From the NCBI GenBank assembly GCA_040901985.1, contig JBBDYC010000009.1, forward strand, positions 248,644 through 312,643: 64,000 nt of DNA, given 5' to 3'. The stretch comes from Gemmatimonadaceae bacterium. Its GTDB lineage: Bacteria > Gemmatimonadota > Gemmatimonadetes > Gemmatimonadales > Gemmatimonadaceae. Position 1 is the first letter of the stretch, and each line of letters starts with the position of its first letter. Below, piece by piece: positions 21,201 through 27,200 of this stretch. The position numbers are program-made.

Positions 21201-24200
21201 TGGACTTGCGCCGTCTCCATCGGGCAATGCACAAGACGCCGATTGCCGCGAACCGCGTGGTTGCAATGCTCGGGGCGTTCTTCACGTTTGCGTGGAAAGA
21301 GGGTGTCCTGCCACCGAAGGAGAACCCAGCGCATACGGTCGAGTTCTATCCGGAGTCGCATCGCGAGCGCTTCCTCTCGCGGGACGAGTTCACACGGCTT
21401 GGCAAGGCGCTGACCCAAGCCGAGACCGTGGGACTGCCGCCCGCACCTCAGCTGCGGCGGAAGAGCGAGAATGACAAGCATCGCCCGAAGAGTGCCAACA
21501 CGCCGATTCCAGCCAACCCGTTCGCAGTTGCGGCGATTCGTTTGCTCGCGCTGACGGGATGCCGCGAGAATGAAATCCTGTCACTTCGGTGGGATGCCGT
21601 GGATTTCGACCGGGGGTACCTCCGTCTAGCCGACTCAAAAACAGGCAGGAGTGTGCGACCGCTCGGCCGAAGCGCCGTATCGCTCCTTGAGCGTTTGCCG
21701 CGAATCTCTGGAAATCCGTACGTGCTCCCTGGCCAACAGCGCAACAAGCACCTCAAGGAGATCAAGAGACTGTGGTACGCCGTGCTCCATGCTTCGAAGT
21801 TGCCGGGACTTCGCCTGCACGATCTGCGGCACTCATTCGCCTCCGTTCCGGCGACCAGCGGCGAGTCGCTGTTGGTGGTGCGCTCACTTCTTGGACACAA
21901 GAATGTTGCAACGACTGAGCGCTACGCACATCTGGCTGACGACCCCGTCAAGCGAGCGGCTGATCGGGCTTCGAGCGACATCGCCGGTTGGCTGAGCCAA
22001 GCCCCGACCACTGATTCCTAGACGTTCCTAGGCCATAGCACTGCCGACGCGAGCGCCACGGCATCAAAGATGCTCACTACTTTGTCTTCCACGACATACG
22101 GCACTCCTTCGCTAGCGCCACTGCAAGTAGCGGCGAGTCCTTGCTCGAAATCCGCTCGCTGCTCGTCCACAACCGAGTAGCCACAAGCGAACGCCACGCT
22201 CCTCTTAGAGAAGATCGATCGATTGCTCGACAGCAATGGTCCAGCAGAGCGCGGCTCTTGAATGCGCTTGATCACTACACACTGCTGGAGCGTCGCTGTC
22301 CAGTCGACAGCCAGCACTGCTCATGATACAGTGTGACCAATCGGACAGGGGTCGCATCGCTGAACCTGGCAGTCCAGGGTCCGCACGCAGTTGCTAGCAT
22401 TGTGCGGTATGACATGCGATAACGCTACCGATTTCGAATAACAGCCGTAGTCCGAAACTGGGCTACGGCTGTATTGCACTGCACTAGGCATTCTTGCTAA
22501 TCATTCCGAACACGAGAATCTGTCGGTGACGCCCTCGTCCCCACGCTCGCCAGTGACCAGCTAGTTCACAACTCACGCGTTGTTTGTCAGGAGTTCGCCC
22601 GTAGAGGGGCACCCTTGCCTGACCTGCAGAGACAGATTCTTCAGTTTCCATGGTCTGCCGTAGAAACGCCTCCATTCGTTCGCCCTGCTCCAAAGCCTCC
22701 GAGCCCCAATGTGGAGGCTTGACACCCTTAAGGGAGCCCAATTTCTGCCACGAGTCATGAACTCGCAAGGCAAGACGTCCCTGTCCCGCTCCCGTATCCC
22801 GCGTATACGCGAGAAGCATGCAGAAGAACTCCCCCGGAAGAGCAGAGAGTAGACTTGCTGGACGCTCTGCTATGAGACGCCGAATCGCGCAGCGGATGCT
22901 AACTTCGAACTCATCGGCGACTAGTTCAACCAGCTCGCCAAACGTATCACATATACTCGGATCCAGTGCGATCCGACTAGCAATGAACTCATTCAACGCG
23001 TCAAGCGGAACAAGCAGACGCCCCGCGCTGTAATTGCAGACCTTTTCCTCAGCTAACGACAGGACTCTCGCTACGCGGAGACGATCCCCCGGCGATGCCT
23101 CCCCGACTGCAACTGCAAGCGCACGCCTCAACCGCCCATTCGACTTCACGTAGAGAAAACGATGAGCAAACTCGTGCGCGTACGCGAAACGGTCCGCCCG
23201 AAATCGTGCCCAGCGCTCCGAGGAACTCCCTGACCCGGGAAGCGTAATCACAAATTCCTGGGCTTCGCTGTTATATCTGAGCTTCGCTCCGCTAGCCAAC
23301 GGATCCCTACTAGGCTTCGGGCGAATCTGAAATTGCTCCGCCACCGCTTGCAGGCGTACCGGAATCGTCGACCCTTTTGAGTTGTAAAGAGCGGCCTCCA
23401 CTTCGCCTACTATCGTTCGCTCTAGCTCTTGCAGGCTTCCTAAGCCGAGAATCTCGAGGTATCTGTGAGTTGCAGTCTGGGCCATTGTAATCCTCACGTT
23501 CGAATATCTTCAATTCAGCTTGACGCCACACGTCTCGCACTATGCTCGGCCTTCCTTTGACACCTCGGATTGCTGCGTCCTCGAGGTCCAGCTGTACCTA
23601 GGTAAAGTCATGCCAGCCCACGTGGGTAACGACGTCCACGACCACCTTTGAATATCTTCAATTCAGATTGACGCCACGCGTCTCGCATTATGCTCGGTCT
23701 TCCTTTGACACCTCGGCGTGCTGCGTCCTCGAGGTCCAGCTGTACCTCCGTAAAGTCATGCCGACCTAAGTGGGAAACGATGTCCATCAACTCGTCGTTC
23801 CCGATCTTCGCAAGATCGATCTTTGCGAGCTTAAGCACCTCTCGGAACGAATCCATTTGCTCGCCGGAAAGCCCCGCCAAGTCCATGCACTCCTGCAAGT
23901 TGGCCGTTTCGCCGAACCGATACCGAATGTCGCGGCAGTTCTCATCACTATCGATGTGAATCAGTTCGTCAAAATTGACCCCGGTCGGTCTATCGGCAGC
24001 GGCGTCAAAAGGGCTGGATAGACACACTTGCCAGAGCTTCTTGAGATCATCATCCGAGATGACCGATTCTAGATCGAGTCTAGATACATTCGTTGAGACA
24101 TTGGACATTTGGAACCAATGCCATGCGCTCTTGATCACTCGGATCAGAAAGCTCTCGGCCAGTCGAAGATGTTCCAAATGCGCCTGCTCATCTGAGCGGC

Positions 24201-27200
24201 ACTTGTGTCCATCGAGCATGCTGGCGAGACCGCCAGTGTAGAATAGGCCGTCACTTCCGAACACGTAGATCTTCCACATCGCTGCGTACTGTGATTCCGC
24301 ATTCACGAGCCCAGAACGCAGTCTTTCGAGGACAGAGGCAGGAACCGCTTCAGCACTCGAGGCGCTATCTGTCACCAGTTCATCGATACGCCCTACCGCC
24401 TCGTTAGCCCTAACGACGATCCCTGGATCCTTGTAGAGTTGCTTGTATGGAGTGGTCCACAGGATCACTCGGCGCGGCAGCACGTCTCTCATCCACTTTG
24501 GGTCGGGAGGAGTCAAAGTACCATCGACGAACTGTTCGAGTTCCTGCATCGATTCAAACGAATGATCAAGCAGGCGCTCAACTAGCCAGCACGCTGTGCA
24601 AAGAAACGGCGCAAAGTACTGGGAATCTAGAATCGCCCCGAGTCGCCTGAGCCATTCTTCCCGCTCCTCGATGGGGGAGTTTGCTGCATCAGCTCCCTTC
24701 AATAGCGCGAACGCTTGATCTCCCGAAAGTATCATAAGCGGTCGGTAGATGCGCCGCTCAATCAGCTTACGGGCCAGGCGGCTATGCGGTGTGCCGAGGT
24801 GACCGTCGCGAGGTAGGTCCGCCAACTGCTGCAAGAAGAGATCGTCGCCCTGCAGCGCATGAAGAGAGGATCCGACTTGATAGAGCTGTGCAATGGTTGG
24901 CCTTTCGTCACCAGCTAAGGCAATCGCTCGAGCGAGCATCGCGATTGCACCCTGCACTACGCGGTGAAATACCGCTTTCTCATGAATCTCATGGCGAAAA
25001 TCAACCATGCGAAACACATCGTTGATTCGTTCGGACCGAATTACGCCACGCTTATAGTCGTTGAGATCAATCGCGCACTGTGCGAGACGTTCTGGCTTCC
25101 ACCCCGATGGACCACCCAAGGCGAGAACTCGAGACTGCGGCACAGCGACGAGTGTGTAGACGTCGAGCAGCTTGGGATCTATGGACTTCTGCATGCCCAA
25201 CCGTCGCGCATCCCGATGCAGATAGTCGAGCAAATCCGCACTAAGCGTATCCCCGACGATGTCGTGCCTGTACGGTTGATACCAAGCCCGGTGCAGTTTC
25301 TCGTGCATCGCAGCAGGGCCTAGCCCCCATTTAATCTTTTCCCTCTTCTCCGTATCAAAACTGGTAACGAGGTTGATCGTCGGACCCCGGAGAGCATCCT
25401 TGACAGATTCAAACACCAATAGATGAAACAGGAGCGATGGAAGAATTCGCTTACCTCTATCTCGTTCAGGCCATTCTTGGCACGCTTCGACGAAGAGACG
25501 CAGATGAGCTCCCTCATCTTTGGCGGCATCCTCCACAAGCAGTCGCCAAAACGCCGACGAGTGTTCGGCTAGGACTCTCGCAAGGATCGAGTCTGCACGA
25601 TCGAAGAGGAGGACGTAGAGCGCTGGATTCTCTTCGAAATCGTCATGCTTCTCATAGGGTCCATAGTAGGACTTAACCTTCGTAGCCCGGTCGTTGTACC
25701 GATGAGTCTTCTTCTCTATGTCGTGCGAGAACGGAGCGTGCGGGATGTCATGCAGAAGCCCCGCGAGCGAGATAAGAAAGCGCTCAGCTCGCGTAATCGT
25801 GGGGAGCGGTTGATTCGGCCTTCCGACAGCTTTGCGTTGCGCGGAGATCCTTGGCGTGTTCTCGTTCAGGTGGTCGACGAGTTCCTTCGCCTTAGCACAC
25901 GCACCAATGCTGTGGATGCCTCGAGAGTGGTTCGCCGTGTGATAGACGAGATCAACGAGCCCAAGCTGGGCTACCCGAAACAGTCGCTGAAACTCCGGTG
26001 TGTCAATACAGTCACTTTCGATTCGATTGAGACGCACGCCTCCCCACAAATCGTCGAGAAACTCCTCCCTATCATCAAAAAGCGAACTTGCCTCATGGGT
26101 CACTTCGAACTCCCGGAGCGGTGTCCGCCTGTTTTTTTTCACTACCTGCAATCTACGGAGTCACTGGATAGCCATCAAGAGGACTCACCGTCTTGACTGC
26201 TCGACGCGCGATAGCTAACCGCTCTTTCTAACCTACTGCCACACAATCACTTAGTCGTCCGCCGCAGTCGGCAATCGCGCGGCATTTTGGATCATTCTAG
26301 GAATGCTCCAGGTCTCAGTAACCCTTCGGTATGAAGGGCAAGCAATCGATACCGAGACAGGCTGGAGGATTCGACTACTCTCAGTTTCTGGCACCTCGTG
26401 TCAGTGCGAACGACGTAGCAGGGCGCTCAACCGGGAGTATCGCTGAGTGAAGAGAACCACCTTGCTCTGCTTTGTCGGGGCTTCGACGAACGGTGCTAGC
26501 ACCTCGCGGACCACCGGCCAGTATACAAGGGACAACGCGCGCGTCGCGCAATCTATGCGAGTCGTTCGCCAGCAAGTCGCCTATTTGACTGACTGATGGC
26601 AAGAATCAATTCTTGCTGTGCGCTCCCTCGTGGAACAAGAGGGTTTCCTTGACCGAACGATCATGTGGACGATTCAGTCAAGCGAACTGCGGATCGAACA
26701 GCAAATGATTTCGCGGGATGATTAACCGGAGCGCCGACGATCAATTCGTAGGTACGCCTAGAACGACGAGGGCCAACGCTGCAGCATCAAATAGGTTCAT
26801 TCGAGTGTCTTCCGCCTGCCAGAGCGCCCTAACACGTGGACGCCGCCGACGCAATTCGGGAAATCGGTTGGCAATCGCGGCCGCGATTGCCGCCTTCGTG
26901 ACTTCGCCAAAGAAGGCACGTACGATCGTTCGGGACACCTGGCAAAGACCCATCTGCCGGTCCGCCACAAATTGAATCGCAAGAGCCTGCCTCCGCAGTG
27001 CCGCCGGTCGCTGACTGGGCGCATACAGATTCTCAAGTGCCAAGACTGAAGGCCTGCCGCGCTCAATGTGAGTCGAGAGTCGAGCTACGAACGCCGCATC
27101 ACCCTGCTTCCCGAACGTGCTGAAGCCGTGGTCAAGTAGGCCCCATTTCGCGTCGATCAAGGCATAGCCAAATCCCTTGGCTGACAGATCGATCGCGAGA

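Follow-up and report, generated by a model that had tools for sequence, protein, structure and literature searches.

A SAMHD1-type HD phosphohydrolase and an M78 peptidase encoded as an obligate gene pair, a candidate defence module, on a mobile island of a Gemmatimonadaceae bacterium

Within a stretch of 64,000 nucleotides from a Gemmatimonadaceae bacterium (contig JBBDYC010000009.1; hereafter the window), a large HD phosphohydrolase gene and an M78 metallopeptidase gene belong to an obligate two-gene operon rather than representing a lone enzyme with a chance neighbour. Among the loci whose layout is clear enough to assess, 14 genomic and 37 metagenomic, all 51 have an M78 homologue directly downstream of the HD gene and in the same orientation; at most of them the end of the HD frame and the M78 start codon are no more than about 40 nucleotides apart and often overlap. 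A preliminary description of this DNA had presented a lone candidate enzyme beside an M78 gene and had left open whether the two are paired elsewhere; the adjacency stands, and the unit is the operon. The two proteins also diverge together, as pairwise distances among the HD proteins and among their M78 partners correlate with a Mantel r of 0.91 (28 distinct pairs; equalled by 0 of 2000 permutations), with the M78 partner evolving faster (13-31% identity, compared with 36-46% for the HD protein). We give an even chance to the interpretation that the pair is a defence module in which a dNTP-depleting effector is placed under post-translational control by a sensor peptidase. The features of the window that bear on this interpretation are the following.

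23608..26103, minus strand: HD gene, 831 aa, predicted SAMHD1/EF1143-type HD phosphohydrolase
22484..23485, minus strand: M78 gene, 333 aa, predicted IrrE/CapP-like zinc metallopeptidase
23495..23786, minus strand: tandem direct repeat (repeat search; copies aligned and frames compared)
23310..23597, minus strand: remnant of the ancestral 3' end of the HD gene (three-frame translation)
20753..22021, plus strand: tyrosine integrase at the island edge (Pfam Phage_integrase, Arm-DNA-bind_3)
20547..20591, no strand assigned: left 45-nt direct repeat (repeat search)
62997..63041, no strand assigned: right 45-nt direct repeat, a perfect copy of the left one

The HD open reading frame spans 23608-26151 on the minus strand, and the 831-aa form begins at a GTG at 26103 with a GGAG box ahead of it. 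The M78 frame (22484-23497, minus strand) is open from a GTG at 23497 and would encode 337 aa; the true start is likely the ATG at 23485, behind GAGGA, which yields the 333-aa form (P0123 in our protein collection). An ORF check confirmed the positions first given for both frames.

The 3' end of the HD gene is rearranged in the window copy. Two 144-nt repeat copies (23495-23638 and 23643-23786), 89% identical and spaced by 148 nt, duplicate the last ~48 codons of the gene and shift the frame, and the HD protein ends 13 codons later. Beyond a TAG in the downstream repeat copy, 95 codons are still open; this remnant encodes the basic tail of the nearest homologues (the tail is found in P0004-P0020, alignment A2) and runs, in another frame, through the first ~55 codons of the M78 gene, comparable to the HD/M78 overlap of ~155 nt at the nearest locus, L017. 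The 148-nt tandem duplication has cost the window copy its subclade-specific tail of ~60 aa and its stop/start overlap with the M78 gene; the copy may differ in function from its relatives or be impaired. Judged by their residues, the HD and M78 active sites are both intact.

The M78 protein carries a predicted zinc site of the HExxH + Glu type, aligned to the IrrE motif; its residues H108, E109, H112 and E151 are unchanged across all 15 sequences. The PADLOC capP match reported earlier was reproduced (E 3.3e-9). Family-specific N-terminal helices are followed by the peptidase domain, a helical linker and a PAS/GAF-like C-terminal domain (residues 222-337). Compared over its whole chain, the protein has the fold of CapP and PprI and shares its three-part layout and zinc site with them; residues 1-90, two helices and a beta-sheet, form an N-terminal extension that is extra relative to both. 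The subfamily is similar in order of size to the HD family (143 full-length representatives at E<=1e-30). It contains no cysteine between H112 and E151, and is thus without the cysteine switch by which CapP is held inactive, so that its control may differ from that of CapP.

The match to CapP and PprI raises an unlikely alternative, in which the M78 protein acts in the manner of CapP, IrrE and ImmA, cleaves a distant or divergent HTH repressor and does no more than raise transcription of the hydrolase after DNA damage. XRE-type repressors are cleaved by all characterised relatives, according to a preprint on the CapP mechanism (10.64898/2026.05.16.725639), and the window holds an HTH_31 gene (27220-27573, same strand) 1.1 kb upstream of the pair, which makes a repressor substrate possible at this locus. 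Around 14 pairs, however, the 139 ORFs of 65-135 aa that lie up to 1.5 kb away all lack a match to an HTH Pfam family (E<=1e-3), and the only HTH domains seen in larger ORFs nearby belong to an HTH_36 protein (L016) and to an HTH-M78 fusion at L012 that is unrelated. Gene order argues in the same direction: CapH/CapP is described as preceding the operon that it controls and being read in the other direction (10.1101/2022.04.27.489752), whereas the M78 gene lies downstream inside the effector operon, abutting or overlapping the HD stop. Nor would repressor cleavage require the tight co-divergence of the HD and M78 proteins. The layout of a CapH+CapP-type regulator is not seen: there is no adjacent XRE-type HTH repressor, and the M78 gene is downstream on the same strand; the pair differs from CapH+CapP, IrrE(PprI)+DdrO and ImmR+ImmA alike in having neither an adjacent HTH substrate nor a cysteine switch, and in not placing the peptidase gene upstream on the opposite strand.

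The Pfam HD match at residues 62-135 of the HD protein was reproduced (E 7.7e-6), and at the sequence level solved structures align no further than residues ~16-133 (6pwy at 1e-12, many SAMHD1 entries at ~1e-8). With a profile of the family, SAMHD1 chains are reached at ~1e-23, and the alignment then takes in the D..DY..RD and R..lH.kA..H motifs as well. There are 195 homologues at E<=1e-5; as had been noted, the 120 matches listed range from 696 to 1027 aa and are named at most 'HD superfamily phosphohydrolase'. An AF2 model built with 38 sequences (pLDDT 87.9, pTM 0.91) matches 6pwy in Foldseek (E 2.8e-12, TMt 0.60), and the whole catalytic-core fold is found, beyond the HD motif alone. In the model the SAMHD1 core extends over residues 2-713, interrupted by insertions of about 230-290 aa, and only residues 714-831 form a family-specific extra helical part. 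The SAMHD1 fold first proposed is thereby upheld; what had been called a helical C-terminal part is mostly core with insertions.

The metal-binding pattern H...HD...D aligns with the corresponding motifs in SAMHD1 chains: H118, D119 and D290 are invariant in the 38 sequences and H64 is conserved in at least 90% of them. The second-shell residues H122, H127, E130, Y294, D298, R370 and H374 are invariant in the same set and fall within aligned motifs, giving the SAMHD1-type pattern (HD..H....H..D/E; D..DY..RD; R...H); we assume that they correspond to SAMHD1 residues by number. Among the residues earlier called invariant, H118, D119, H122 and H127 are so, whereas D128 is conserved in at least 90% of the 38-sequence alignment. 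The protein is most likely a metal-dependent triphosphohydrolase of the SAMHD1/EF1143 branch, predicted to convert dNTPs to deoxynucleosides and triphosphate.

A different phosphoester substrate (NTPs, a signalling nucleotide or nucleic acid), with the insertions (~290 aa) and the C-terminal part setting a new specificity, seems rather improbable to us. SAMHD1 Y374 and Q375, which in the numbering we presume contact sugar and base, are not retained in the aligned motif, so that the choice of substrate may differ. The aligned motifs carry the full set of residues that lines the SAMHD1 catalytic site, and of the characterised proteins those that score best (EF1143, SAMHD1 and the C. elegans orthologue) are without exception dNTP triphosphohydrolases. 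Membership of the anti-phage dGTPase family was rejected, as a full-length match to the PADLOC and TIGR01353 models fails: the PADLOC dGTPase profile gives a weak match (E 2.2e-4, 18.7 bits) over positions 53-123, or 71 of 395, and TIGR01353 (Dgt) scores 14.1 bits against a cut-off of 152.35. The zero PADLOC result reported earlier thus holds in that the models fail to recognise the protein, although a partial match exists.

That the two overlapping genes move as a unit, on islands and on contigs of plasmid-like character (RepB at L009; integrases at L008, L017 and L050), would also suit a toxin-antitoxin-like addiction module that keeps mobile elements stable, in which the hydrolase is a toxin acting by nucleotide depletion and the peptidase neutralises it by degradation or binding, with no sensing of phage. 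The faster evolution of the M78 partner points the same way, antitoxins being frequently fast-evolving. We regard such a module as improbable: conservation of the PAS/GAF-like sensor domain and of the full IrrE/CapP layout indicates signal-dependent control, and gene order and sizes differ from those of classical type II pairs. Addiction and defence roles are compatible with each other.

The pair is an accessory, horizontally transferred module. G+C content is 0.55-0.56 at the two genes, compared with ~0.70 before 18 kb of the window, and the integrase at the island edge is 68% identical (BLASTP 284/417) to the one beside the nearest HD-M78 relative, L017. The perfect 45-nt repeat has only two copies in the whole genome and resembles a tRNA or tmRNA 3' end (partial Rfam tmRNA match, E 5e-4); it is likely the att site of an integrated element. 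The setting in a mobile, defence-rich island is therefore as first described, but its size is not: the low-G+C segment within the window measures 42.5 kb between the repeats, and not 53 kb. The island also carries Ppl-like, GajB-like, DarT/DarG and restriction-modification genes. The HD gene is confined to the genome of the window, both among 41 related genomes and among 401 of the phylum, and a search of one genome per species across 185,579 species returned 16 loci with the pair; family members come almost entirely from uncultured members of the Acidobacteriota, Planctomycetota and Verrucomicrobiota. Of the 16 genomic loci, 6 have defence genes recognised by PADLOC or Pfam less than 6 kb away (CRISPR I-C, Mrr/MTase, a pAgo-associated TIR protein, a dCTP-deaminase-like protein, RmrA and BglII restriction-modification). 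Defence or mobile genes are found near the pair at 9-10 of these 16 loci and at 11 of 24 metagenomic loci with flanks; at about half of the related loci they were not seen, and some pairs have housekeeping surroundings (L013/L065, L004, L010). A stress or housekeeping device that trims dNTP pools after DNA damage, and is not antiviral, could draw on such surroundings (L013, L065, L004), on the DNA-damage response of IrrE-type peptidases and the repair function of the IrrE regulon, and on a Dgt enzyme that reportedly has a cell-cycle role (PMC11071499), but it is very improbable, as the occurrence of the pair is much too patchy for a core function and its island has an integrase at the edge and a foreign G+C content.

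In the defence module that we favour, the hydrolase would remove the dNTPs that phage DNA replication needs, and the M78 peptidase would respond to an infection or DNA-damage cue, possibly single-stranded DNA as in IrrE and CapP, and either cleave the hydrolase to switch it on or gate it in another manner. We infer post-translational control because the operon partner is a hydrolase and not an HTH repressor, and because the full IrrE/CapP layout is present. More tentatively, the pair may represent a new class of two-gene anti-phage system, an IrrE/CapP-type peptidase having been re-targeted from a repressor to an enzyme, such that binding of an infection cue (e.g. single-stranded DNA) leads it to cleave a latent SAMHD1-like dNTPase zymogen directly, resulting in dNTP depletion. 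The authors of the CapP preprint anticipate that relatives of CapP will turn up in new pairings of sensor and effector (10.64898/2026.05.16.725639). The original proposal of a candidate defence enzyme missed by current models is sustained in fold, catalytic residues, island location and the failure of the models, while its dNTP depletion and defence role would follow from homology and context.

Compared with SAMHD1 (human and C. elegans ZK177.8) and Enterococcus faecalis EF1143, the HD protein is nearly twice the size owing to about 230-290 aa of core insertions and a 118-aa helical C-terminal part, has no SAM domain, is 17-20% identical and is always co-encoded with an M78 peptidase. The Dgt-type anti-phage enzymes, Shewanella dGTPase and Vibrio Vdg (PMC12265719, PMC13519002), share the logic of an HD-superfamily nucleotide-depleting effector and a location in defence islands. 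These are single-gene systems of about 400-500 aa, whereas the window protein falls in the SAMHD1/EF1143 branch and comes with an obligate partner; a single-gene system is contradicted by the M78 gene downstream in 51 of 51 loci, and a term search of the Vdg paper (PMC13519002) turned up neither a peptidase nor M78. Clover is a two-gene system whose dNTPase effector is controlled by a partner enzyme (PMC12265719). It joins the dNTPase CloA to CloB, a Pol-beta-type nucleotidyltransferase, and acts through an inhibitory nucleotide; the window pair was not assigned to it, as its second gene encodes a zinc peptidase that carries a PAS/GAF-like domain, and control would be by proteolysis or binding. 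Protease-activated latent effectors share the idea of an operonic protease that turns an inactive effector active, and in a term search of the preprint on them (PMC12642450) HD, SAMHD1, dNTPase, M78 and ImmA did not come up. A full-text literature search combining peptidase with HD, SAMHD1 or dGTPase terms found no paper, and the HD-M78 family is missing from PADLOC v2.

Few features tie bacterial antiviral immunity to that of humans as clearly as nucleotide depletion of the SAMHD1 kind. To our knowledge, Clover, with its inhibitory nucleotide, is so far the worked example of how bacterial dNTPases are kept off before infection. If the proposed mechanism is true, the HD-M78 pair would be a second, proteolytic answer to this problem and the first case of an IrrE/CapP-family peptidase acting on an effector instead of a transcription factor, in phyla (Acidobacteriota, Planctomycetota and Verrucomicrobiota) whose defence repertoire is poorly explored. 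The obligate pairing thus suggests an undescribed, protease-controlled route to starving phages of DNA building blocks.

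The HD gene, which encodes an 831-aa SAMHD1/EF1143-type phosphohydrolase, and the M78 gene, which encodes an IrrE/CapP-like zinc metallopeptidase, occupy the minus strand of the window in head-to-tail order, as placed in the preliminary description:

23608-26103, minus strand: HD ORF, GTG start with a GGAG box ahead, product of 831 aa
22484-23497, minus strand: M78 ORF, 337 aa counted from the first GTG

The more likely start of the M78 gene is the ATG at 23485, which is preceded by GAGGA and yields a product of 333 aa, the form held in the protein collection. The G+C content at the two genes is 0.55-0.56, as against ~0.70 over the window's first 18 kb. 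A promoter and terminator scan of 22000-27800 returned sites no more numerous than those in shuffled sequence.

Only the N-terminal part of the HD protein is visible to sequence methods. The Pfam HD domain covers residues 62-135 (E 7.7e-6), and sequence searches match solved-structure chains at residues ~16-133, among them the C. elegans SAMHD1 orthologue 6pwy (1e-12) and many human SAMHD1 chains (~1e-8), so that the matches reported earlier are reproduced. The protein had been described as blank in PADLOC; it has a weak and partial dGTPase match there (E 2.2e-4), and it scores 14 bits against the NCBIfam Dgt model, whose cut-off is 152. A profile built from 38 family members finds SAMHD1 chains at ~1e-23 and also aligns a D..DY..RD block (~D290-D298) and an R..lH.kA..H block (~R370-H380) to SAMHD1. 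The invariance of H118, D119, H122 and H127 that had been claimed holds in all 38 sequences, as does that of E130, D290, Y294, D298, R370, H374 and H380; at H64 and R61 conservation is 90% or higher. We take these conserved residues to be the SAMHD1 metal ligands and catalytic-site residues. The original assignment as a SAMHD1-type enzyme holds up. The division of the chain had to be redrawn, because in the matches to SAMHD1 the model is covered from residue 2 to about residue 713; the SAMHD1 core, with insertions of roughly 230-290 residues, is thus spread over seven-eighths of the protein, and the helical C-terminal part described before is confined to residues 714-831. An ESM Atlas search with residues 700-831 gave structural matches of TM <0.5, save for one short hypothetical protein, with no usable feature match, and found no HTH- or DdrO-like relation; this part is a generic helical bundle.

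The M78 protein is of the complete IrrE/CapP type, with a peptidase domain, a helical linker and a PAS/GAF-like domain, to which an N-terminal extension is a family-specific addition. Pfam has no match in the window's protein and finds Peptidase_M78 in 10 of 15 family members. The CapP/IrrE likeness noted before is upheld by the PADLOC capP model (3.3e-9) and by a zinc site, H108, E109 and H112 of the HExxH motif with E151, that is invariant in 15/15 family sequences. The family profile matches IrrE/PprI (8slm, 8e-9; 3dte, 1.7e-8) and, at 0.011, CapP (7t5t). The M78 protein has no Cys in the H112-E151 loop, the site of the autoinhibitory cysteine switch of some CapP members. A word-indexed profile search, restricted by its index, gave 15 hits, and an exhaustive profile search was used instead; it found 143 full-length M78 representatives at E<=1e-30, a number comparable with that of the HD homologues (~195).

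The preliminary description flagged the pairing of these genes in other genomes as unexamined. Scanning a single genome for each species yielded 16 loci, in MAGs of Acidobacteriota, Planctomycetota and Verrucomicrobiota, and a metagenome scan yielded 77 further loci, 61 of them belonging to the HD family; HMMs for both proteins were run on the six-frame ORFs. A locus was considered judgeable if its sequence included the 3' end of the HD gene plus 250 nt or more beyond it, which was true of 51 of the 77 family loci from the two scans together, the other 26 being fragments or truncated by contig ends. In all 51 (14 genomic and 37 metagenomic, the latter including the duplicates L027/28/29/53 and L025/26) an M78 homologue comes directly after the HD gene in the same orientation; six matches are weak (1e-10 to 1e-15). 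The distance from HD stop to M78 start is at most ~40 nt in most loci, often with an ATGA-type overlap. HD-HD and M78-M78 distances are correlated across 28 distinct complete pairs (r 0.91; 0 of 2000 permutations as high), indicating that the two genes are inherited together; with relatives having a common history, this value alone is no proof of physical interaction. A complex prediction that joined residues 445-831 of the HD protein to the complete M78 chain, with an alignment for each, gave no answer and a score of 0.00 in both control-free runs, which speaks neither for nor against contact. No HD-M78 fusion occurs among the 120 HD homologues listed (longest 1027 aa) or the 150 M78 representatives listed (longest 445 aa). 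The operon linkage is obligate and co-divergent. Having the adjacent peptidase as an obligate partner makes the finding stronger than in the preliminary description.

Several HD genes at MAG and metagenome loci are split into two to four ORFs (L002, L004, L008, L012, L013, L041, L049, L058, L076 and L077, the last with pieces ~1.5 kb apart), owing either to frameshifts from sequencing or to decay of the copy. At L015 a clear remnant, with pieces of both genes, adjoins a BglII restriction-modification system. At two of the 16 distant loci, shorter and more distant SAMHD1-like HD proteins (L086:1060-3555 and L092:2165-4716), which match the family profile at E ~1e-34 to 1e-40, also precede an ORF with an M78 core (E 1e-5 and 6e-5). 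The association may reach beyond the HD family. At two related loci the next gene after the M78 gene, in the same orientation, is a PNP_UDP_1 gene of the nucleoside phosphorylase superfamily (L014:3324-4046 and L037:8813-9619); some variants of the module may thereby have a third component, directed at nucleotides.

According to one report (10.64898/2026.05.16.725639), the substrate cleaved by IrrE, CapP and ImmA is an XRE-type repressor encoded by the adjacent gene, and another (10.1101/2022.04.27.489752) places capH and capP upstream of the regulated operon in opposite orientation. It could be argued that the M78 protein, which shares the fold and zinc site of CapP and IrrE, is likewise a transcription-only regulator. 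Both an adjacent HTH substrate and the upstream, opposite-strand position, which define such regulator pairs, are missing here: the peptidase gene sits inside the operon of the effector, and a search of 139 ORFs of 65-135 aa, located up to 1.5 kb from 14 pairs, matched no HTH family, the sole match being a glutaredoxin. The peptidase has a single conserved partner, the HD protein. The HTH_31 gene 1.1 kb upstream of the window's pair, with an unassigned 160-aa ORF after it, is an arrangement not conserved at other loci. The window also carries a second HTH (HTH_31/HTH_3) and M78 pair on the plus strand (45364-47275), canonical-looking, with overlapping genes and followed by an HNH endonuclease gene, in contrast to the HTH-less M78 gene beside the HD gene.

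The 3' end of the window's HD gene is rearranged by a tandem duplication of its last ~48 codons, present as two 144-nt copies, 89% identical and spaced 148 nt. Since this spacing is no multiple of three, translation leaves the original frame where the copies join and stops 13 codons on. Beyond a TAG in the downstream copy, the old frame is open for 95 codons; this stretch encodes a basic tail with an acidic end, as in the nearest homologues in the family alignment (P0004-P0020), and extends, in a different frame, over the first ~55 codons of the M78 gene. A similar overlap, of ~155 nt, is found at L017, the nearest relative of the pair. The window's protein has thus kept all family-wide conserved blocks and lost a subclade-specific tail and its stop/start coupling. 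The two copies have diverged by 11%, which suggests either that the duplication is old or that two alleles recombined.

The pair is accessory and mobile in its distribution. The HD gene was found in the window's genome alone, both in a set of 41 relatives (24 from its genus, several of these incomplete, and 16 from its order) and in 401 genomes sampled from the phylum. A tblastn search of plasmid and phage collections found no family member, its matches being other HD proteins at residues ~20-150. In the window a tyrosine integrase, 68% identical to that beside the L017 pair, adjoins the two genes at one end of a low-G+C segment, which also carries two Eco57I-type enzymes, a type I methylase, the second HTH and M78 pair and the following features:

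20547-20591 and 62997-63041: perfect 45-nt direct repeat bounding the low-G+C segment, copies 42.45 kb apart
33492-38215, minus strand: adjacent UvrD-type helicase and 880-aa PHP + SMC/AAA ATPase (GajB models 3.7e-48; PADLOC Ppl 6.6e-44)
57580-59485, minus strand: DarT/DarG pair (DarT ssDNA ADP-ribosyltransferase 2.3e-17; DarG macro domain, PADLOC 2.4e-65)

The 45-nt repeats, present in two copies in the whole genome, are probably the att sites of an integrated element. They contain a T-arm and acceptor-like sequence resembling a tRNA or tmRNA 3' end; the left copy has an 18-nt tmRNA 3'-end match (Rfam, E 5e-4) and is followed, in host DNA, by a G+C-rich terminator hairpin. At the island borders neither ARAGORN nor Rfam at its gathering score reports an intact tRNA or tmRNA gene. 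The helicase and PHP-ATPase may form a Ppl-helicase defence pair. Just downstream of a serine recombinase gene, a 228-nt direct repeat (30850-31077 and 33252-33479; 90% identical, 2.4 kb apart) surrounds two unassigned ORFs, and a 25-nt core of it occurs at three sites (31052, 31734 and 33454).

Defence genes lie within 6 kb of the pair at 6 of the 16 genomic loci:

L001: CRISPR I-C
L002: Mrr/PDC-S02 and methylase
L005: pAgo-associated TIR protein
L006, 5045-6967, minus strand: 640-aa dCTP-deaminase-like protein (DCD 5.6e-27), 0.3 kb from the pair
L012: RmrA
L015: BglII restriction-modification

Two different candidate nucleotide-depleting proteins are adjacent at L006. Transposase, integrase, resolvase or plasmid genes occur at L002, L003, L008, L009 and L012. 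Of 24 metagenomic loci whose flanks are present, 11 have neighbours of a defence or mobile type, judged by Pfam name, including Schlafen/AlbA_2, GmrSD with a methylase, AbiJ_NTD4, RAMA with NERD, PIN_12, MT-A70 with ParB_N, integrases and Bro-N; at the remaining loci the neighbours are housekeeping or uninformative. These plain neighbour counts, which are no enrichment statistic, are suggestive of a defence-island association.

The module joins a SAMHD1-type hydrolase to an IrrE/CapP-type sensor peptidase, both with intact active sites and without an adjacent repressor gene. IrrE and CapP respond to ssDNA, which is bound in a groove between the peptidase and GAF domains. We propose that the peptidase would sense an infection or DNA-damage cue and act on the hydrolase itself, through activating cleavage or gating, and that the hydrolase would then deplete dNTPs. 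We give about an even chance to the view that the module is a protease-controlled, nucleotide-depleting defence system; its specific version, in which the hydrolase is a zymogen cleaved by the peptidase, is more doubtful. Three further readings, like the transcription-only regulator, are each given a low probability. The pair might be a stress-response dNTP trimmer, which would accommodate a DNA-damage cue; its sporadic distribution and its integrase-bounded island speak against this. It might be an addiction module, an idea that suits its mobility and joint inheritance, with the conserved PAS/GAF-like sensor domain as an argument against. The HD protein might also act on a different substrate, against which stand the catalytic-site residues that it has in common with SAMHD1.

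In its predicted working the HD protein is likened to SAMHD1 and EF1143, the branch in which structure and motifs place it; it differs from the Dgt-type anti-phage dGTPases, whose models it matches weakly and in part at most and which are single-gene systems. The closest precedent in logic for the protease-controlled defence system is Clover, in which a dNTPase is paired with a regulating enzyme that is a nucleotidyltransferase (PMC12265719). A survey of dGTPase-domain architectures (PMC13519002) describes fusions to SAM, NLR, TIR, death and SIR2-like domains, and a term search of it gave no peptidase or M78. In a preprint on protease-activated effectors (PMC12642450) the terms HD domain, SAMHD1, dNTPase, M78, metalloprotease and ImmA do not occur. 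Full-text literature searches found no paper combining M78 or a peptidase with HD, SAMHD1 or dGTPase and phage defence, and M78/IrrE/ImmA/COG2856 and SAMHD1/dNTPase occur together in none of the matches listed, a scope that covers main texts. Nucleotide depletion is a known kind of defence, and the HD-M78 pair would represent a variant of it.
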